Positions 1,033 to 22,585 of a stretch of 24,037 bases of DNA are shown here, piece after piece; position 1 is the stretch's first letter, and the number at the start of each line of letters is the position of its first letter. The notes beneath the pieces were generated by a model, which saw only the letters and a program-made list of their open reading frames with translations, had not been told where the DNA came from and made no database searches. Origin of the DNA: a virus. The position numbers and the translations under genes were made by a program. The DNA lies in UHGV virus genome UHGV-0103738; one strand, 5' to 3'.

Positions 1033-1078
1033 TAACCAACGGGGGGCGCAATGCCCCCAATTAATTAAAGGTGATTAA

Positions 1079-3091
1079 ATGCTTAAATTTCGCCGCGAAC
1101 TTAACGGTTACGGTGGAGTTATTAACGAAGGGCATAACGATCAATACGAATTTGAAATTGCTTTCTCCAGTGAACAGCCTTATCAGCGCCAATTCTGGGA
1201 TGAGCAAAATCAAGAAATGGTGGTATTAGATGAAATTCTGGTACATACACCGGAAGCGGTTGATCTGTCTCGTCTGAATAATAACGCTCCGTTGCTGTTT
1301 AATCATAATTTCGATAATCATTTAGGTGTCGTTTGTAACGCTCGAATCGATGCGGATAAAGTAGGCCGTGCGACCGTTAGATTCTCTAAGCATGGCACTT
1401 TGGCTAATGATATTCGTAATAAAGTCATTGAAGGTACGATGGAAAAAATTTCTGTCGGTTATGACATTAAAGAATATCACATCGATTATGCCAAAGGACA
1501 ATTGATTGTTACTAAGTTTGTTCCTTTCGAATTAAGTTTTGTTACGGTCCCGGCGGACGATTCGGTCGGTTTAAATCGCTCTCTAAATACTATCACAGTT
1601 AATTTGGAGGCTAAACGCGATATGACTAAAGAACAAATTGAAGAAATCAAAGAAGAACAAGAATCCGCTCAGGTTGAAGAAACTCCGGTAGAAGAAAATA
1701 AAGAACCGGAAGTTGAAGAAACTCAAGAGCGCCAAGTTGAAGAGAATAAAGAAGATGAAAATCTCGAAGACGGAAAAGACGCTGAACATCCTGAAAGTGT
1801 TGATGATGATAGTTCAACTGTTCGGGAAACAGAAGAAGTAAAAGAAGAACGTGAAGCTGCTCCGGTTGAAGAAGAAAAAACCGAGGAAGTGGCTGAACGT
1901 TCCGAAGAAGACGAATTAGAAATTCGCGAAATTGCACGCGAGTTAAATATTAACGAAGACGATGAAGAATTTAAACGCGCATTGGCAAATAAAGAAATTA
2001 CGCCGGAAGCATTCCGCACTAAGGCACTAAATAACATTACCAATGCTCAACGTAATAACGAACAAATTAATAAGGAACAAATCATGGAAAAAACTTTCGA
2101 TCTTAATAACGTAATCCGCTCCCTGGTAGATGGCGACGTGCTCGGCGCTAACGAAGCTGAATATTCCGCAATGGCTGCTACTGCAACTATGCAGCGTGGT
2201 CGTGCTGCTCGTGGTGGCTCTGTATTCGTTCCGGCTGCTGCTATGCGTGCTGCTGCTGATGGCAACACCAAAGCTAATCTGGTTGCTATCACTGACGAAA
2301 AACTGATGACTGAATCCTACATCGAAATGCTGTTGCCTCAGAGTGTTTTAGGCCGCCTCGGGGTGACTGTTTATAGTGGCTTGACTTCTCCGACCGCTAT
2401 TCCAAAAATGACTAAATCCAGCGTTGACGCTTTCGGATTCGTTGACGAAAATGGCGCTGCCCCCGAGTCACATGCGGAATTTTCGAACGTGAAACTGTCT
2501 CCGAAAACTTTTGCTGGTGGCAACCCGATCAGCCGTCAGTCGCTGAAAACCGTTCCGGGCATCGCTACCCTGATCACCGATCACATTAACAAATCTGTTC
2601 GGATCAAACTGGAACAACTGATTCTGTCTGATAAAGAAAATGCTCGTGGTCCGGCTGGTCTGGTTAAGCAACTGGTAGACGCTAGCCGCGTTACCAAGAA
2701 AGCTGCTTTCTCTTATAAAGACTTCCTGAAAGAAATTGCAGCACTGACTGACGCTGGCGTTCCTGCTCAGGCGATCAAGTTTGCGATGAGCGGTGCAACT
2801 GCTGCTGAACTGGAATCTACCCTGAAAGATAACGGCGTTTCCGGTTATATCATCGAAAACGGCAAACTGGCTGGTTACGAAGTAGTTACTTCTGGCGTTA
2901 TTCCGGCAGACCACATCGTTCTGGGTGACTTCTCCGGTATTACTATCGGTGAGTGGGGCGGTCTGGAACTGGATATGGATCTAACTACATACCGTGATCG
3001 TGGTGCGGTAGTGCCTCGTATCTTTGTAGATTTGGACTACGTTGTAGCACAGCCGGAAGCTCTGAAAGTTCTTCACATCTCCGCTGAATGA
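1079..3091 (+). CDS. Prohead protease / acidic scaffold-like linker / major capsid protein encoded in one reading frame (670 aa)
   Basis: Shine-Dalgarno AAAGGTGA at 1067-1074, ATG at 1079. N-terminal ~170 aa carry HK97-family prohead protease-like motifs (ISVGY, ELSFVTVPADD). A Glu/Lys-rich low-complexity segment spans ~1620-2080. The C-terminal ~335 codons switch to codons typical of highly expressed genes (ctg, cgt, ggt, gct, ttc), as expected for a major capsid protein. Stop is TGA at 3089-3091. Confidence 0.8.
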   Translation: MLKFRRELNGYGGVINEGHNDQYEFEIAFSSEQPYQRQFWDEQNQEMVVLDEILVHTPEAVDLSRLNNNAPLLFNHNFDNHLGVVCNARIDADKVGRATVRFSKHGTLANDIRNKVIEGTMEKISVGYDIKEYHIDYAKGQLIVTKFVPFELSFVTVPADDSVGLNRSLNTITVNLEAKRDMTKEQIEEIKEEQESAQVEETPVEENKEPEVEETQERQVEENKEDENLEDGKDAEHPESVDDDSSTVRETEEVKEEREAAPVEEEKTEEVAERSEEDELEIREIARELNINEDDEEFKRALANKEITPEAFRTKALNNITNAQRNNEQINKEQIMEKTFDLNNVIRSLVDGDVLGANEAEYSAMAATATMQRGRAARGGSVFVPAAAMRAAADGNTKANLVAITDEKLMTESYIEMLLPQSVLGRLGVTVYSGLTSPTAIPKMTKSSVDAFGFVDENGAAPESHAEFSNVKLSPKTFAGGNPISRQSLKTVPGIATLITDHINKSVRIKLEQLILSDKENARGPAGLVKQLVDASRVTKKAAFSYKDFLKEIAALTDAGVPAQAIKFAMSGATAAELESTLKDNGVSGYIIENGKLAGYEVVTSGVIPADHIVLGDFSGITIGEWGGLELDMDLTTYRDRGAVVPRIFVDLDYVVAQPEALKVLHISAE

Positions 3092-3217
3092 ACTCCTGTA
3101 GAACCATCTGAACCTTCCCCCGATTTGGGGGAAGAAAATCTGATTCCTGAACCGGAAGAAGAATCCCAGACGGTTAAGGCGAAAGCCACAGCTAAAAAAC
3201 AGCGTAAAACTAAAGAA
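3092..3217 (+). other. Putative in-frame TGA read-through extension of the capsid protein (42 codons, TAA at 3218-3220)
   Basis: The frame stays open for 42 codons after the TGA, encoding TPVEPSEPSPDLGEENLIPEPEEESQTVKAKATAKKQRKTKE. It ends 5 nt before a terminator hairpin. A parallel arrangement follows the tail tube gene. Confidence 0.45.
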
Positions 3218-3225
3218 TAATAATT

Positions 3226-3252
3226 AGCCCTGCCTAACGGTGGGGCTTTTTT
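3226..3252 (+). terminator. Rho-independent terminator after the capsid gene
   Basis: Stem AGCCCTGCC / GGTGGGGCT (9 bp, two G-U pairs), loop TAAC, followed by a T-run. Near-identical to the hairpin at 9094-9121. Confidence 0.75.
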
Positions 3253-3282
3253 GTATGTAAATACTCCATAAAGGGGGTAACT

Positions 3283-3988: not shown

Positions 3989-4822
3989 ATGAATATTACA
4001 CAAGATAACTTAGATATTTTCACGGGGTCACATGTTGAAGTGTCGATCTCTAACCAGATAGACAATCAGGTCGACTTTTTCGATCCTAGCTTTAGTTCCA
4101 TCGAGAACGTTGCAGCATTTCCTACGCTAACCGAATCCACAGAGATAGAAACTCTGGAAGAGTACGATCAGGACGCTACGGGGAAACTTGCTGGTTATCG
4201 TAGACTGGAACCGACAACACTCACGTTAAACCGTGTTCTGGATGACGAACATCAAGCAATGTTGATGAAAGCGGTAGAGGATAAAACACCTTTACGCTTC
4301 CGTATGTTCTATGTTGTGAACTCTGGCTATAGTGCTGCTAACACTGGTTACTATGTCATCTATGATGCTTACGTCACATCACACAAAACCCGTGGTAGTG
4401 ATAACAAAGCTGTAACACTGGAATTTAAACTTGAACCAGATGGCGGGATTTTGGATCGCGGTATTGCAACGGAGGGTCGTCTTCTCCGTCGCGGGGATTA
4501 TGGCGTAGGTGCAGGTGTACATCCATTCACAGGTCCGATTGATAGTGATGCTTTAGCCGGAAACCGTTTCGTAACTTACAAGGGAACTGCTAGCGGTAAT
4601 CCATATTCAGCCGACACATCATTAATTCACCTTCAAGCTAATGAGCATGGCGCATGGCAATTAACCTGTAATACTTCTGGCGCACCACGTTTACGCGTCC
4701 GAAATATTCAGGAAAACGGTCGCTCTGAATGGATCAAGGTATATTCCACCAATGAGAAACCGACACCTAGCGAAATTGGCGCAGTGGCTAAGACTGACCG
4801 GATCGATTTCGGCGAATACTAA
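3989..4822 (+). CDS. Tail-tube-like paralogue with a C-terminal domain carrying a tail-fibre motif (277 aa)
   Basis: SD AAGGGGTAA. N-terminal ~150 aa align by eye with the 157-aa tail tube protein (DIFTG..., AAFPTLTESTEIETLEEY vs AGFPETGIERGTVEVKSF, LRFRMFYVV vs IQIKVEYYV). The C-terminus has KVYSTNEKPTPSEIGAVAKTD, matching KMYHEGDKPTPGEIGAYTKAE in the fibre gene. Confidence 0.6.
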   Translation: MNITQDNLDIFTGSHVEVSISNQIDNQVDFFDPSFSSIENVAAFPTLTESTEIETLEEYDQDATGKLAGYRRLEPTTLTLNRVLDDEHQAMLMKAVEDKTPLRFRMFYVVNSGYSAANTGYYVIYDAYVTSHKTRGSDNKAVTLEFKLEPDGGILDRGIATEGRLLRRGDYGVGAGVHPFTGPIDSDALAGNRFVTYKGTASGNPYSADTSLIHLQANEHGAWQLTCNTSGAPRLRVRNIQENGRSEWIKVYSTNEKPTPSEIGAVAKTDRIDFGEY

Positions 4823-4901: not shown

Positions 4902-7900
4902 ATGCAGTCGATCCAATTTAAACGCACACAAACGGCTGGTAAAAAACCAACGCCGGAACAATTATCACAGGGCGAGATCGCCTTACAACTGGCGGACCAT
5001 GTGATTTACACCAAAGATAAAAATAATAACGTAGTCCAAATTAGTGTTTCTCCAGAAAAACACGCTGAACTGAATACGAAAGTAGACACCAACAAGGTCA
5101 ACACAGATAAAGTCATTTCAGCAAATAAAACCGAAGCCGCTAATAATCTGGCTACGGCTAAAGCTGAACTTAATCAGACTATCACTTCTACCCGTGATAC
5201 TCTCAATGCTTCAATCACTGCTGGCGATACCGCAGCCAACAAGCGAATTGATGCTTTGACTACCACAGTAGGTAACAATAAAACCGAAGCGGCTAACGCT
5301 CTGGCGGCTGCTAAGACTGAACTGAATCAGACTATTACTTCAACCCGCGATACTATCAACGCGACAATTAACAAGAACAAGACAGATATTAATGCGCGAG
5401 TTGATCAGACGAATACCAACGTTACCAACTTAACGAATACTGTCGCAGCAAATAAATCAGCAATAGAAAAGACGGTAGCGGATAATAAGAAAGATGCGGA
5501 CACGAAGATCACCAATCTTACTAGTACGGTCTCTGCGAATAAGACAGCCATTGAAAGAACTGTTGCAAATAACAAGGCCAGTGCCGATGCCGCAATTGCC
5601 GCAGCTAACCAGCGAATTGATTCTATTGAAGGTAGTGCCGATGCTGCTTACATCAAGAAGAATACCAATACTAAGCATGGTGGGTATCTGTTAAGCAAGA
5701 CAGCTAACTATTTGGAAGACCAGACAGCGAGAGATCTTAACTACTTTGGTGCTTTCCGTACCAATGGTCAAGATGGACTCATGGATCTAACTCTTAATGT
5801 TCCTCATTCTGCCGGTAAAGCGCACGGTCGCGGATTTACTTTCCGTTATGCGTCTGGTGGATCTCGTGTTGAAACCTATGGTTTTGATAGAGAAGGACAG
5901 AAGAACTTTAGCTATAAGATGTATCACGAAGGTGATAAGCCGACTCCTGGCGAGATTGGCGCATACACCAAAGCCGAAGTTGATAAGATGTTTGTTAAAA
6001 ACGTCGTTATGTCTGTTCCCAATTCTAGCGAAAACGTATCTGCATATTTCAAATTGGCAACCGCAACAATTCCACAAAACGGGCGTAGTGTGTTTTTCCG
6101 TATTCATGGTGGTAATGGTTACAACGTTACGGCATATGATCAGGTTGACGTAGTAGAAATTCTTCTGCGTAGTGGTAACGATAGACCTAAAGGTCTTAAC
6201 GTAATTGCATACCGTAGAAATACAAACAAAGATTTTGAGGTATTTGCTGTCAATACTTCCGGTGATAACTATGATATCTACGTGAAATATCAGCGTTATA
6301 CCGATAACGTTATTGTCGAATATGGGAAATCTGTTTATGTAAGTTTGACGGTTTATGATACGCCGGAAGCCACGTTAATTAAACCTTCCGTTGGTGTTAT
6401 CGGTGGTCGCAACGTAACTCTTTTTAATACTGAAAATAAACGTGGTGTGTTAAGTTTTGATGATAACACACAAAACAGCTATGACATTGTTCACTTGAGT
6501 AACGATAAAGGTACTGGACGGAAATATATTCGTAAATTCCGTAGCAACTATAACGAAATGGTTTGGCATGAAACCGTTCAGGGTGCTGTATATCGTCTTG
6601 CTACCGGTGCTACAGATTCTACAGAAGTTATTAGAATTGATTCTAATAGTGCAATACCGGGTAATTATAAAGGATATGTAATTACTGGTAAAATGGAATT
6701 GCACGGTAGTGGTAATGCGATGACTTTACATCGCCAGACTGGTCAAGCTGCATATATGGCGTGGTGGGATCGTCGTGATGGTAAAAACCAACGTAGTGGT
6801 TATATCGGTCATGCGGATGGTACTAGTGATGGTTTTGTGTGGCGTAATGATGTTGGTGCTAACTCATTTGATTTGGAAGGTAGTGGACAAGTAAATTTGA
6901 CTACAGGAAAAACAAAAATTGTATATACCAATGGTCAATATTATTCCGCTAACGCTGATGCATTCCGTATGATTTACGGTAAGTATGGTGCATTCTGGCG
7001 AAATGATGGTGGTAAAGTTTATCTGTTGTCTACTGCCGAAAATGATAGATTTGGTGGTTGGAACGGAAACCGACCATTCATTTACGATTTGACTAACGGT
7101 AAAGTTACTTTAGGTGGTGATGGTAACGAAGGCGCATTAGTTCTCGAAAGAGATAGCCGTGCTGCTCGATTTGCTGGCGATACATATATCGAGAAAGGGT
7201 TTTTAACCTTCTCTGCTGGGAGAAGCGGATCTCGTGATTATATTCGATTTAATCATTGGGGTGATAGTAATAATGCCCGTGATAACGTTTTGTACCTAGA
7301 AGATAGTCAAGGTAGACATTTTAGCACAGAGCGTGCGATGGGTACTGGTGCTCTTAAAGCAAACTTCTTAGGCGATCTTGAAGTTGGTGGTAAGTTTACT
7401 TGGGGTAAAAATACAGCTACATCCAGCTTTAATATTCGTGCTTGGGGTAACGATAGTCGTAAACAAGTATTAGAATGTGGTGATGAAAGTGGTTGGCATT
7501 GGTATACCCAACGTCCGGGCGGTCCGGGTACTACGGCAATTGAGTTTGCCATCAACGGTACTGTTAAGCCTCAAGCAATTCACACTGGCGGTAATATCAC
7601 GCTTAACGGTGCTGATATTGAATTTCGTCGCACTGGTAATAAGCATATCTGGTTTAGAGATCCAACTGGATTAGAACTAGGTTTGATGTATTCTGATGAT
7701 GCTGGTGTTATTCGCTTCCGTGGTCAGAAACAAGCCCAGACGTGGAAACTTGCGGATAAGATGATTCATCTTGAATCTGGTAGCGTCGGCGGATCTGATA
7801 AAGGTTTGATTCGTGGTAACGTTTCTGGTGGTAGCTGGTCTAGTTGGCGCGATCGTGCATCCGGCTTGCAAGTTGATTGCCCTCAATCAACCGATTCCGC

Positions 7901-8432
7901 TCATAACATCTGGAAAGCTACTCATTGGGGTAAATATCACATTGCAGCAATGGGTGTACACGTTCCTAGCGGTACTATCGGTAACGCTCTTGTTCGTCTG
8001 CATGTTAACGATACTAACTTTGACTTTAACGCTGCTGGTGACTTTACCGCAGGTCGTAACGGTAGCTTTAACGATGTTTACATTCGCTCTGACTCCCGTT
8101 TGAAGATTAACAAGGAAGAATTACAGGACGGTGCATTAGAGAAAGTAAACTCACTGAAAGTCTACACCTACGATAAAGTTAAATCTCTTTCCGATGACAC
8201 GGTGATTAAACGCGAAGTAGGTATTATTGCTCAGGATCTGGAAAAAGTATTGCCGGAAGCAGTAGGTATTCAATCCACCGAAGATCCAGAAAATCCAGAA
8301 GCAATCAAGACTATTTCTAACTCTGCTGTCAATGCTTTAATCATCAAGGCTATGCAGGAAATGGACGCCAAATATAAAGCACAGATCGAAGCATTACAGA
8401 AAGAAATTGCCGAACTGAAAGCAACTAAATAA
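4902..8432 (+). CDS. Side (L-shaped type) tail fibre with a C-terminal intramolecular chaperone / self-cleaving domain (1176 aa)
   Basis: SD GAGGTGA. N-terminal fibre-type motifs, a repeat-rich N/T/A shaft with 51-aa repeats, and a long Gly-rich beta region. The C-terminal ~114 aa begin RSDSRLKINKEE and end in a coiled coil, as in peptidase S74-type chaperone domains of phage fibres and endosialidases (Ser/Lys spacing S1063/K1068). Confidence 0.8.
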   Translation: MQSIQFKRTQTAGKKPTPEQLSQGEIALQLADHVIYTKDKNNNVVQISVSPEKHAELNTKVDTNKVNTDKVISANKTEAANNLATAKAELNQTITSTRDTLNASITAGDTAANKRIDALTTTVGNNKTEAANALAAAKTELNQTITSTRDTINATINKNKTDINARVDQTNTNVTNLTNTVAANKSAIEKTVADNKKDADTKITNLTSTVSANKTAIERTVANNKASADAAIAAANQRIDSIEGSADAAYIKKNTNTKHGGYLLSKTANYLEDQTARDLNYFGAFRTNGQDGLMDLTLNVPHSAGKAHGRGFTFRYASGGSRVETYGFDREGQKNFSYKMYHEGDKPTPGEIGAYTKAEVDKMFVKNVVMSVPNSSENVSAYFKLATATIPQNGRSVFFRIHGGNGYNVTAYDQVDVVEILLRSGNDRPKGLNVIAYRRNTNKDFEVFAVNTSGDNYDIYVKYQRYTDNVIVEYGKSVYVSLTVYDTPEATLIKPSVGVIGGRNVTLFNTENKRGVLSFDDNTQNSYDIVHLSNDKGTGRKYIRKFRSNYNEMVWHETVQGAVYRLATGATDSTEVIRIDSNSAIPGNYKGYVITGKMELHGSGNAMTLHRQTGQAAYMAWWDRRDGKNQRSGYIGHADGTSDGFVWRNDVGANSFDLEGSGQVNLTTGKTKIVYTNGQYYSANADAFRMIYGKYGAFWRNDGGKVYLLSTAENDRFGGWNGNRPFIYDLTNGKVTLGGDGNEGALVLERDSRAARFAGDTYIEKGFLTFSAGRSGSRDYIRFNHWGDSNNARDNVLYLEDSQGRHFSTERAMGTGALKANFLGDLEVGGKFTWGKNTATSSFNIRAWGNDSRKQVLECGDESGWHWYTQRPGGPGTTAIEFAINGTVKPQAIHTGGNITLNGADIEFRRTGNKHIWFRDPTGLELGLMYSDDAGVIRFRGQKQAQTWKLADKMIHLESGSVGGSDKGLIRGNVSGGSWSSWRDRASGLQVDCPQSTDSAHNIWKATHWGKYHIAAMGVHVPSGTIGNALVRLHVNDTNFDFNAAGDFTAGRNGSFNDVYIRSDSRLKINKEELQDGALEKVNSLKVYTYDKVKSLSDDTVIKREVGIIAQDLEKVLPEAVGIQSTEDPENPEAIKTISNSAVNALIIKAMQEMDAKYKAQIEALQKEIAELKATK
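5124..5429 (+). repeat. Two tandem 153-nt (51-codon) repeat units inside the fibre shaft
   Basis: AATAAAACCGAAGC(C/G)GCTAA...CTGAA(C/T)T(T/G)AATCAGACTAT(C/T)ACTTC recurs at 5124 and 5277. Protein units are NKTEAANNLATAKAELNQTITSTRDT... and NKTEAANALAAAKTELNQTITSTRDT... Confidence 0.7.
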
Positions 8433-8488: not shown

Positions 8489-8962
8489 ATGTCTCAGCAA
8501 TTCAAAGATATTTTTACTGGTGGTCTGGTAAGTCTGTTCTATCACGCCGATACCACTAACACCGACCTTGCCGATGAAGCATACGAAGAAATTAAAGAGT
8601 GTGCTGGTTTTCCTGAAACTGGTATCGAGCGCGGTACTGTAGAAGTTAAATCCTTCTCTTCTCAGTATAACCGTAAACTGGTAGGTAAACTGAACGTTCC
8701 TGATCTGACTCTGACCGTTAACTACATTCCTGGTGATGCGGTACATGAGAAGCTCATAAAGGCTGCCGAAGACGGTACGCGTATTCAAATCAAAGTTGAA
8801 TACTATGTTGACGCCGGAAAACAGACTGGTATTCGCACTGCTTTCAACGGCTTTATTTCTAAAGTTGCTATGAACGGTGGCGATGAAGAAGTGGTAACGA
8901 AAGAGTTTACCTTTGCTGTTGATGGTGCTCCGCTGAAACAGCAAATCTTCACTGCCGGATGA
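8489..8962 (+). CDS. Major tail tube protein (157 aa)
   Basis: SD AAGGGGTAA. Strongly biased highly-expressed codon usage. Lies upstream of the chaperone and tape-measure genes and is followed by a strong terminator. Stop is TGA at 8960-8962. Confidence 0.7.
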   Translation: MSQQFKDIFTGGLVSLFYHADTTNTDLADEAYEEIKECAGFPETGIERGTVEVKSFSSQYNRKLVGKLNVPDLTLTVNYIPGDAVHEKLIKAAEDGTRIQIKVEYYVDAGKQTGIRTAFNGFISKVAMNGGDEEVVTKEFTFAVDGAPLKQQIFTAG

Positions 8963-20856: not shown

Positions 20857-22536
20857 TTAAATTCCAAATTCTTGTAATGGACCTGGTATTTCTTCTTCTG
20901 GTTTCCAGTTCTTATCTGTCAGCATGTCTAAACATGGATGCAGAACAAGCCCGTTACTCTCCAGAATCTGCCTATCATTGATAGTCTTCAAATCAACGAA
21001 GATCCGGCCTTTCCTCGGTCCTCTTGAATTTTCTATTACAACTCTCTGGGTCTTGCCATCGATGTATTCCAGTACAAACAAGTTTTTGTACTTGTCAATC
21101 CTGCTACACCCGATCCGTTTTAGAGCTTGCTTAATCTTAAACCGGACCTTAATGCGATCCTCGTTGTAAACATCTTCTAAATCAAATTCTGCGAGCTTCT
21201 CCCAGCCTTGAGAGTCAACAGAATACATTTCCTCTTCTGCCATCTTAAGTTGATTGTAGAGTGTTTCACGCTCGCTATTGAGGGTAGTAATCTGATCGGC
21301 TAGCTCCTTCGTTGCTCCTGTCATAGCAGAAAGGGTAATCAGGTTATCAATCTTGCGTGATATTTCATCAATCTGTACTTTCAAAGCCGGAACCGGATTA
21401 GCCTTATCTTCAGCAATCCAGATTTTATCAGCCAGCAATTGCAATACAGCTTTCTCTAATTGGTCGCCGCGAAAACTCCAGTTTGTATGCACACATTCAA
21501 TACGACTAGAGCGCATTGCATCGCATGAATAACGATATTGGTTAGGCCGTCTGTTTGTTCCTTTCACCTTAACCATAGCGGAACCGCAATGTTCACATTT
21601 CAATAGACCAACACCACTAAGCAAGGGAATAGGTTTAGCTTCTTCTTTGTCTCCAAAGTTACATGCTCTAACACCAATGCTTTTCTTAAGGTGATAAAAC
21701 TCAGCGTCATCTAGCACACGAGGATAATAATCCTTTAACTCATACTTAACGCCATCTACAGAGATTTCCTTGATACCAATCAAAGCGCGGGTATGGAACA
21801 ACCTTTCAATCATTGCCCGTGACCAGTTTGAATGCCTCTTGTGACTTGCGGCTGGTGGTGGTGTGTATGTCGCGTTAAGGTGATCCAGTATCTCGGCGGT
21901 TGACCGTCCATTCCTGCGTAATTCCACAACTTCCTGAACAATAGGGAAGAAGACCGGATGAGGAAGCACATAACCAGATGTGGTATCAGTCCACCACATA
22001 TTCTTTCCAATTTCCTCGATTGCAACAGCCGGATTTTGTGGATTTTCTTGATGAGCTTTAATCTTAATCAGTGCGCTTGAGTTAGTACGATTGCGCTTAG
22101 TCTGGCTTTCCTCATTACCACGGATGAATAAAAGGATGGAGAACATCAGGTCCATCGGGTTAGCGGTAACAGTATCAAGCGAGTAGATCTTGTTATCCAT
22201 GCCAGTAACAATGGTTATCCCCCTACGGATGATTGAAAGGAATAACTCCTGTGCACTGACAATATCGGCACGGGATAAACGGTCCAAGTTTTCGATGAAT
22301 AGCCAGCTACCAACAGGAACGGATCTACCTATTGCATCAAGGAAACGAGATAGCGCCCCTGTTTTGGAGTTAGCACCCTTAAACGCAGATACACCCAGAT
22401 CCTGATAATCATTTACCAGTTCAAGGTCATACTTTACCGCAATCTCTCTAGCCATCCTGATTTGTCGTTCATAACTCGAACCATCATTCTGACGCATAGA
22501 CGAGAAGCGAATATACGAATACAGTTTAGTTTTCAT
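20857..22536 (-). CDS. Large serine recombinase (integrase/resolvase family, ~559 aa from ATG 22536)
   Basis: N-terminal catalytic motif YIRFSSMRQ (Arg/Ser/Gln spacing of serine recombinases) and ENLDRLSR. Central recombinase region. Cys cluster CEHCGSAMV...YRYSCDAM...ECVH (zinc-ribbon-like), then a coiled coil. Track start is a TTG at 22551; the first ATG is at 22536. Confidence 0.85.
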   Translation of the reverse strand: MKTKLYSYIRFSSMRQNDGSSYERQIRMAREIAVKYDLELVNDYQDLGVSAFKGANSKTGALSRFLDAIGRSVPVGSWLFIENLDRLSRADIVSAQELFLSIIRRGITIVTGMDNKIYSLDTVTANPMDLMFSILLFIRGNEESQTKRNRTNSSALIKIKAHQENPQNPAVAIEEIGKNMWWTDTTSGYVLPHPVFFPIVQEVVELRRNGRSTAEILDHLNATYTPPPAASHKRHSNWSRAMIERLFHTRALIGIKEISVDGVKYELKDYYPRVLDDAEFYHLKKSIGVRACNFGDKEEAKPIPLLSGVGLLKCEHCGSAMVKVKGTNRRPNQYRYSCDAMRSSRIECVHTNWSFRGDQLEKAVLQLLADKIWIAEDKANPVPALKVQIDEISRKIDNLITLSAMTGATKELADQITTLNSERETLYNQLKMAEEEMYSVDSQGWEKLAEFDLEDVYNEDRIKVRFKIKQALKRIGCSRIDKYKNLFVLEYIDGKTQRVVIENSRGPRKGRIFVDLKTINDRQILESNGLVLHPCLDMLTDKNWKPEEEIPGPLQEFGI

Positions 22537-22545
22537 ACCATTTCC

Positions 22546-22585
22546 AAACAAAAACGCCCCTACCGCGTATTATAACGATAGGGGC
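22546..22585 (-). terminator. Hairpin with T-run immediately upstream of the recombinase start (– strand)
   Basis: 10-bp stem whose one imperfect position is a G-U pair only in the – strand transcript, followed on the – strand by GTTTTTGTTT. The loop contains TTATAAT. Confidence 0.5.

Follow-up and report, generated by a model that had tools for sequence, protein, structure and literature searches.

How does a tailed phage that encodes the protease, the linker and the shell protein of its head in one uninterrupted open reading frame (ORF) control how much protease is taken into each procapsid? This question is raised by ORF 1079-3091 in a 24,037-nucleotide (nt) stretch of DNA from the UHGV virus genome UHGV-0103738, which was analysed at its full length and is referred to here as the window. 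Carriage of the protease and of an acidic linker of ~200 residues on every subunit would mean one protease per capsid subunit in the procapsid, and a rough, uncomputed estimate puts the internal cargo of a T=7 shell at ~17 MDa, several times the HK97 load. A conserved internal start would provide a simple answer to how the stoichiometry is set. The candidate in this ORF is the in-frame ATG of codon 182 (Met182), preceded by a Shine-Dalgarno (SD) motif, from which a protease-free product consisting of linker and capsid protein would be translated. On the strength of the sequence comparisons described below, Met182 is probably a genuine internal start (rough probability 0.7).

ORF 1079-3091 is a three-in-one head-assembly gene, made up of an S78 (HK97 gp4-type) protease, an acidic/helical linker and an HK97-fold capsid protein. 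The Pfam domains Peptidase_S78 (PF04586; amino acids 40-162, E 1.8e-10) and Phage_capsid (PF05065; amino acids 414-666, E 6.6e-25) lie in a single uninterrupted ORF directly 3' of the portal gene (end 1032), which is the arrangement of a triple fusion. The full length of the protein matches PHROG 617 (E 2.7e-92), and a match to PHROG 4523 ('major head and protease protein') was obtained as well. A stop codon between protease and capsid protein is absent from the window ORF, from all 99 relatives analysed and from the loci L102-L108; two genes that appeared to be split (L106 and L107, matching only 322/336-667) have ORFs that run off short loci and are fused. Within the protease, His76 (LLFNH) and Ser125 (ISVGY) are invariant in alignments of fused genes at 24-78% identity, and by analogy with HK97 gp4 they are presumed to form the catalytic pair.

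Across the fusion family, no part of the protein is less conserved than the linker. It was examined in an AlphaFold model built from a shallow alignment (protein homologue searches returned E. coli/Shigella sequences only, at 74-98% identity), with a mean predicted local distance difference test score (pLDDT) of 44.8; only the protease and the helices of residues 276-336 are modelled well. The final confident protease strand ends at residue 155, residues 157-183 are of low confidence, a short helix spans residues 184-197, and residues 191-273 are predicted to be disordered or are of low confidence. An earlier reading of this DNA made from the letters alone (hereafter, the sequence-only reading) had called the segment that follows the protease scaffold-like. 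That description fits the helices of residues 276-336, in which the columns I282, A301 and F312 are kept over 24-78% identity (alignment), and does not fit the predicted disorder of residues 191-273; in the model, the linker is thus only partly scaffold-like.

The same reading had placed a GGAGG motif at 1606-1610 and an in-frame ATG at 1622, separated by a gap of 11 nt, and these coordinates are exact in the sequence. The ATG is in the frame of the full-length start (1622 = 1079 + 3 x 181, which makes it codon 182), the spacer occupies positions 1611-1621, and the site stands in the context ...NLEAKRD-MTKEQIEEIKEE.... Its placement at the end of the protease and at the beginning of the acidic segment was likewise confirmed: the Pfam S78 match ends at residue 162, the modelled fold ends at about residue 155, the conserved protease tail VPADD-SVGLNRS stops near residue 168 in the alignment, and the acidic run begins directly after Met182, which lies ~14-26 residues beyond the protease fold. 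GGAGG occurs once in the 2013-nt ORF and five times on the + strand of the 24-kb window. Of all in-frame ATG, GTG and TTG codons of the ORF, only Met182 (-9.3), Met336 (-6.2) and Met633 (-5.5) are preceded by an SD:anti-SD duplex of -5 kcal/mol or lower, and the gene starts of the prophage itself span -6 to -14.5 (calculated with the extended anti-SD), which includes the value at Met182. Local mRNA folding at ATG 1622 amounts to -3.5 kcal/mol, as against a gene mean of -10.5 kcal/mol, and the accessibility of the site (0.44) falls among the values for genuine starts of the prophage. When synonymous codons were resampled, given the amino acids and the codon usage of the gene, the probability of an SD arising upstream of Met182 by chance was 0.064.

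The evidence that carries the case comes from the fusion family as a whole. The family set comprised 99 fused genes, which were reduced to 52 representatives below 60% identity, and 80 IMG/VR loci were fetched, all of which contain a single fused ORF. The protease motif E.[ST]....[PA]AD served as the anchor, the first in-frame ATG after this motif was taken as the site, and a 5-mer located 4-12 nt upstream of it was counted as an SD. In an alignment of nine fused genes (24-78% identity), all have a Met a short way past the protease, where conservation is otherwise absent. In DCP80 (43% identical) this Met aligns at the Met182 column, and on hand inspection GAGGA or AAGGA was seen 6-10 nt before the first post-protease Met of DCP80, ep3, phiHAP-1, Persinger and RcCronus. 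Across the set, a 5-mer SD is present at the first post-protease ATG in 31 of the 52 representatives (60%) and in 51 of all 99 genes. As controls, an SD precedes 6.4% of the codon positions in the linker, 3.9% of the remaining in-frame ATGs and 5.6% of the linker ATGs that are out of frame (binomial p ~5e-24), and a tighter control, restricted to positions between the protease and the first ATG, gave 4.2%. The association is also specific to the reading frame, as linker ATGs bear an SD in 36 of 84 cases in frame 0, in 6 of 102 in frame +1 and in 0 of 5 in frame +2.

Since acidic linkers are rich in GAG and GAA, synonymous codons were resampled with the protein held fixed. This procedure led to an expectation of 12.1 sites with an SD among the 52 representatives, as against the 31 observed, a number that none of 200,000 simulations reached (0/200,000). 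SD 5-mers beginning 10-15 nt before the ATG account for 55 counts, compared with ~1 per position elsewhere, and a peak at this distance is what an initiation site would show. These ATGs also lie in less strongly folded mRNA (mean z +1.41, p = 4e-11), an effect to which their purine-rich composition may contribute. As the sequences are related, the p-values overstate their independence; the linkers are, however, unalignable, and the signal is spread over many lineages. Taken together, these comparisons demonstrate nucleotide-level selection on the signals across the family, and they support an in-frame start with a ribosome-binding site (RBS) at the protease boundary as a conserved feature of protease-scaffold-capsid fusions. 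The nested in-frame start that the sequence-only reading had proposed, with a protease-free scaffold-plus-capsid product, is thereby borne out at the level of sequence by the family-wide SD comparison.

Two further ideas concerning the supply of the short product were discarded. An internal promoter of the UL26.5 type was sought, and 4 promoter-like sites were obtained against 4.6 expected, none of them well placed before 1622. The proposal that the full-length RBS is weak, so that the internal start supplies the bulk of the capsid protein, was withdrawn: AAGGTGAT pairs at -10.8 kcal/mol with the extended 16S tail, and the -4.3 calculated with a 9-nt anti-SD had understated the duplex. Only 21 of the 52 representatives have an internal SD that surpasses the best upstream candidate in strength.

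At closer range, 13 E. coli sequences sharing the protease module of the window were compared. Codons 168-191 are nucleotide-identical in the 13 except for GAG->GGG (in L010, L011 and L022), two synonymous differences (ATC->ATT at codon 172 in L011 and ATT/ATC at codon 187) and a change of EEIK to EQVKDE in L005. The SD motif is GGAGG in L001-L009 and GGGGG in L010, L011 and L022, the latter being the SD motif of several genes in this prophage; SD and ATG are kept in L001-L011 and L022. Among 209 E. coli/Shigella cluster representatives, Met182 is kept in 189 (...RDMTKEQ), of which 167 read NLEAKRDM, 21 NLGAKRDM and 1 NLGAKQDM. Another 19 carry a different protease module, ending in ...VDGEKNVE, whose DNA (GAT GGA GAA AAA AAC GTG) contains GGAGA, an A-rich spacer of 6 nt and an in-frame GTG at the junction (duplex -6.4), and in a third protease module (L015) the in-frame ATG found at the junction lacks an SD. 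Four genomes resemble the window only from query positions 553-562 onwards (window ~1631-1640), 9 nt past ATG 1622. The mosaic joint at ~1631 thus falls at the proposed start, in the way that recombination joints in phages usually fall at gene boundaries.

Synonymous variation in the E. coli clade is near zero over codons ~161-260 (~1560-1860), many 15-codon windows being at zero, while the gene mean is 0.147 and the flanks of this region reach 0.3-0.5. Recent recombinational spread, with mosaic joints at ~1631, is the likely cause of the low diversity in the linker; an overlapping constraint at the nucleotide level is the alternative.

Several points weigh against Met182 as a start. The 11-nt spacer exceeds the 4-7 nt of the other genes in the window, which have G-rich SDs, and it is the second longest of the family and lies in the upper tail of the distribution, where the mode is 6-7 nt, 27 of the 36 SD-bearing sites have 5-7 nt and 11 nt occurs in 1 of 36; the Met182 site may for this reason be weak. 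About 40% of the representatives have no recognisable SD at the first ATG. Close relatives are among these, namely L015, the Atlantibacter loci L102 and L104 and the Leclercia/Rouxiella loci L103 and L105; the site is weak or missing in these Enterobacterales genera, and in L103 and L105 there is no linker ATG before the capsid-proximal one. The low synonymous diversity spans the whole linker and thus cannot be credited to an RBS, and synonymous-site conservation in the 13 close E. coli sequences was accordingly dropped as evidence for one. Lastly, GGAGG pairs with an upstream CUCUCU (1577-1612) to form a weak hairpin in a 101-nt context, although the 101-nt fold around the site is not stabler than that of shuffled sequences (z = -0.56). 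The CUCUCU side of the hairpin consists of SLN codons, and TCT CTA AAT is kept even in other protease modules; such a hairpin could render internal initiation dependent on ribosomes that are translating the protease part. The features of the locus are collected in Table 1.

Table 1. Coordinates of ORF 1079-3091, its candidate translation signals and its predicted segments, given as positions in the window
Feature	Position	Strand	Basis
SD of the full-length start (AAGGTGAT), 3-nt spacer to ATG 1079	1068..1075	+	Duplex -10.8 kcal/mol with the extended 16S 3' end
Full-length ORF, 670 amino acids: S78 prohead protease, linker and HK97-fold major capsid protein	1079..3091	+	ORF list, Pfam, PHROG
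Protease domain, amino acids 1-170, with invariant His76 and Ser125 columns and the tail VPADD-SVGLNRS	1079..1588	+	Nine-gene alignment; AlphaFold pLDDT 65-90 for amino acids 1-156
Internal SD motif GGAGG	1606..1610	+	Sole GGAGG in the ORF; duplex -9.3 kcal/mol; kept in close relatives; family-wide SD enrichment at the boundary
Internal in-frame ATG, Met182	1622..1624	+	Frame of 1079; first Met after the protease
Predicted nested product, 489 amino acids, linker and capsid protein without protease	1622..3091	+	Inferred from SD, ATG and their conservation
Acidic low-complexity segment, amino acids 198-273, predicted to be disordered	1670..1897	+	pLDDT ~25-35, no secondary structure; poorly conserved family-wide
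Conserved helical segment, amino acids 276-336, candidate scaffold or delta-like element	1904..2086	+	Helices 276-288, 296-303 and 309-336, pLDDT 61-78
Second internal SD AAGGA, 7-nt spacer	2072..2076	+	Duplex -6.2 kcal/mol
Second internal in-frame ATG, Met336, N-terminus of the conserved capsid-proximal region MEKTFDLNNVIRSL	2084..2086	+	209/209 E. coli/Shigella representatives
TGA-A stop with an open in-frame extension of 42 codons, then TAATAA; candidate readthrough tail	3089..3223	+	Open in homologues
Intrinsic-terminator-like hairpin and T-run 3' of the capsid gene	3226..3257	+	9-bp stem with 6 GC pairs, then TTTTTGTATG

One alternative is that only a single polyprotein is made from ATG 1079 and then split by autoproteolysis, with protease and capsid protein at 1:1 and with the SD and ATG of 1606-1624 as an unused relic of an ancient gene fusion or a coincidence. 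The suboptimal 11-nt spacer and the ~40% of relatives in which the first ATG has no clear SD speak for this possibility, as do the good SD of the full-length start (-10.8), the PGAP annotation of a single coding sequence in all E. coli homologues and the papers on related fusions, in which 'a single propeptide' or 'a single gene' is described. A relic, however, would not survive in more than 30 lineages below 60% protein identity whose linkers are unalignable. The nucleotide-level selection indicated by synonymous resampling (31 against 12.1 expected) and the specificity of frame and spacing argue against a relic as well, and GGAGG is unique within the ORF; a polyprotein without internal initiation is thus considered unlikely. 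The motif might, alternatively, act as a translational pause at the domain boundary that lets the protease fold, the nearby ATG being incidental. Its position just after a folded domain would suit this function, and SD-like sequences inside genes have been suggested in the literature to cause pausing, although the effect is disputed. Nevertheless, a pause needs no fixed distance to an ATG, whereas the SDs peak 10-15 nt before the first in-frame ATG, as befits an initiation site and not a free-standing pause element; nor would a pause be expected to produce the frame-specific association of SD and ATG. A role in pausing alone is therefore regarded as highly improbable.

The second nested site, at Met336, could itself be the origin of the main protease-free product; in the sub-clade to which the window belongs, most of the capsid protein would then be made without the acidic linker, with little or no initiation at Met182. 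In this sub-clade (29-50% identity), AAGGA or AAAGGA precedes the equivalent Met despite differing residues (K-E, K-D, K-G), and an SD with ATG is kept there in 13 of 19 sequences against 3.1 expected from synonymous resampling, the 19 not being independent of each other. The spacing of 7 nt is near-ideal, the local structure is very low (minimum free energy -2.3, unpaired fraction 0.66), the Met is universal among the E. coli/Shigella representatives (209/209), and relatives in Leclercia, Rouxiella and Yersinia have retained the Met336 site while no linker ATG is present upstream. On the other hand, the SD of Met336 is weaker than that of Met182 (-6.2 against -9.3). Outside the sub-clade the equivalent Met is without an SD (in the distant clade, the aligned Met stands in a conserved peptide motif, IG[ML][ST][DE].E), and downstream in-frame ATGs carry SDs at the background rate of 3.5%. 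From these sequence data, the putative nested start at Met336 is clade-specific. It is decidedly unlikely that it replaces Met182 as the main start, and the two sites are not mutually exclusive.

If Met182 is accepted as the internal start, two in-frame initiation sites, and perhaps a third, would operate on one late mRNA. AUG 1079 (SD AAGGUGAU) would give rise to the 670-residue protease-linker-capsid chain and AUG 1622 (SD GGAGG, 11-nt spacer) to the 489-residue linker-capsid chain without protease, while in the sub-clade AUG 2084 (SD AAGGA) may yield a 335-residue capsid chain that has only a short N-terminal extension. The chains would co-assemble via their common capsid domain, and the full-length chains, which would be in the minority, would bring the protease into the procapsid, which it would enter because it is covalently joined to the inward-facing N-terminus. 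After assembly, the protease would trim all N-terminal extensions. Given that the extensions would be removed by the protease and that the chains would co-assemble, the initiation ratio would determine how much protease and how much internal cargo the procapsid receives. We infer initiation itself, the amounts of the products, their co-assembly and their cleavage alike. The homologous R4C capsid (PDB 8GTA, T=7, 415 copies) contains a 268-residue chain that aligns only to amino acids 411-663 of the window protein, which is consistent with the removal of everything N-terminal in the mature shell; processing is not discussed in the R4C structure paper.

Protease-capsid fusions are common (>539 relatives in IMG/VR; 2293 protein hits at E <= 1e-10), and the genes are annotated as 'major capsid protein' and described as encoding a single propeptide. 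If the proposed scheme is true, fusion genes would have to be annotated as two or three products, and models of capsid assembly for the family would change.

The 3' end of the gene may add a further product. The TGA stop is followed by A and by an open extension in frame 0, with the sequence TPVEPSEPSPDLGEENLIPEPEEESQTVKAKATAKKQRKTKE, after which TAATAA and the terminator hairpin are found. All 16 sequences compared carry TGA-A, the frame-0 extension is open in all 15 E. coli homologues, and the lengths of these extensions (87, 90, 132, 135 and 138 nt) are all multiples of 3, with stops only in other frames. An internal SD or ATG was not found in the extension 3' of the capsid ORF, which is unannotated, and the other members of the fusion family mostly end in TAA without an extension. 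By analogy with Q-beta A1, programmed UGA readthrough leading to a C-terminally extended minor capsid protein is a candidate function for this arrangement. A more far-reaching proposal is that the one ORF encodes a whole head-shell programme, in which nested starts at Met1, Met182 and Met336 are combined with two C-termini (one at the TGA stop, the other reached when UGA-A is read through and a conserved basic tail of 42 residues is added) into up to six chains, with stoichiometry set by the efficiencies of initiation and termination, and in which post-protease initiation is a general, unrecognised rule for tailed-phage protease-capsid fusions. This proposal is tentative and, in its full extent, doubtful.

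The 24-kb window covers the structural genes of a temperate E. coli prophage of siphovirus-like type. Similarity to it was found in 62 of 5426 complete E. coli genomes, the top match being 96% identical across the full 24 kb, and 53-55 E. coli genomes match the capsid-gene region at 87-96% identity. E. coli H2 (NZ_CP028733) shows 96% identity over the entire window. When a phage collection was searched with the window, a near-identical phage was not found, and a scan of genome contigs with the protein alone gave no hits. The closest homologue in the phage database is DCP80 (L016, PQ671644.1, Escherichia phage, 5789-7789; 43% identity), a 141-kb record classified as a T4-like Gaprivervirus; since a T4-like virus is not expected to have a protease-capsid fusion of HK97 type beside its portal gene, this record may be chimeric or misclassified. 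In the window, the portal gene (end 1032) and ORF 1079-3091 are followed by small head-tail genes, a major-tail-protein-like gene, a 1176-residue tail fibre, a second major-tail-protein-like gene, the tape measure, the distal tail protein, a 1258-residue tail tip protein, an endolysin and, on the minus strand, a serine integrase. The two major-tail-protein-like ORFs (3989-4822 and 8489-8962, both PHROG 158) are paralogous and bracket 4902-8432, the long-tail-fibre-like gene of 1176 residues, which thus stands between the head and tail modules, an odd place for a fibre gene. The large serine recombinase (20857-22551, minus strand; 564 residues, PHROG 95 integrase) stands where the structural region ends and fits a temperate prophage that integrates via a serine, and not a tyrosine, integrase. 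An Rfam scan of the window found no RNA families.

Nested in-frame protease/scaffold genes are established in lambda and in herpes simplex virus 1 (HSV-1; UL26/UL26.5). In the archaeal Haloferax virus HFTV1, the nesting of gp17/gp17.5 was shown by harringtonine ribosome profiling and mass spectrometry, and the C-terminal part is 7.8-fold more abundant. The likeness of the window gene to lambda C/Nu3, drawn already in the sequence-only reading, stands as far as design and function are concerned: the protease is N-terminal, an internal in-frame RBS and ATG at its end would give a shorter, protease-free assembly protein, and the full-length form would take the protease into the procapsid via the shared C-terminal part. 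It does not extend to descent or to the extent of the product, as there is no sequence homology, and the lambda capsid protein gpE is encoded by a separate gene, whereas the nested product predicted here includes the capsid protein. Lambda gpC belongs to a protease family different from S78. Mu I/Z is another nested in-frame protease/scaffold pair, and the herpesvirus-type protease fold is related to HK97 gp4. In Mu, HSV-1 and HFTV1 too, the major capsid protein has a gene of its own; in the present case the nested product is not scaffold only, for the ORF continues through the capsid domain to 3091. HSV-1 UL26.5 further differs in having its own promoter and transcript, whereas an internal promoter above chance was not found in ORF 1079-3091.

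With HK97, the locus shares the families of gp4 and gp5 (PF04586 and PF05065) and their order after the portal gene, and HK97 gp5 structures match the capsid part of ORF 1079-3091. The predicted Met182 product would resemble gp5 in carrying an N-terminal assembly domain on the capsid protein, and the full-length chain would correspond to gp4 fused to gp5. The differences are that a stop codon separates protease and capsid protein in HK97, as against one ORF here, and that the extension comprises ~200-220 largely acidic/disordered residues here, compared with the 102-residue helical delta domain of HK97. A conserved internal start would connect the HK97 arrangement with the nested arrangement of lambda, Mu and the herpesviruses.

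The same protease-scaffold-capsid architecture is present in the known triple fusions (MD8, Murka/FoX and PHROG 617/4523), and FoX1, ep3, phiHAP-1, Persinger and RcCronus are detectable homologues of ORF 1079-3091. The fusions of Pseudomonas phage MD8 (gp5) and of the Xanthomonas phages Murka/FoX (major capsid protein) have been described as 'a single propeptide', with internal initiation unmentioned. In the literature searched, the coverage of which was incomplete, no paper was found in which an internal start in a triple fusion is proposed or tested; the conserved internal RBS is an addition to the published descriptions. In phage P2, gpO combines protease and scaffold in one polypeptide that is made at full length only, has no internal start and separates by autoproteolysis, and it is the model for the single-polyprotein alternative considered above. 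Since the short product would be the capsid precursor itself, the gene described here represents a variant of the lambda C/Nu3, Mu I/Z and HSV UL26/UL26.5 design, and not a strict member of it.

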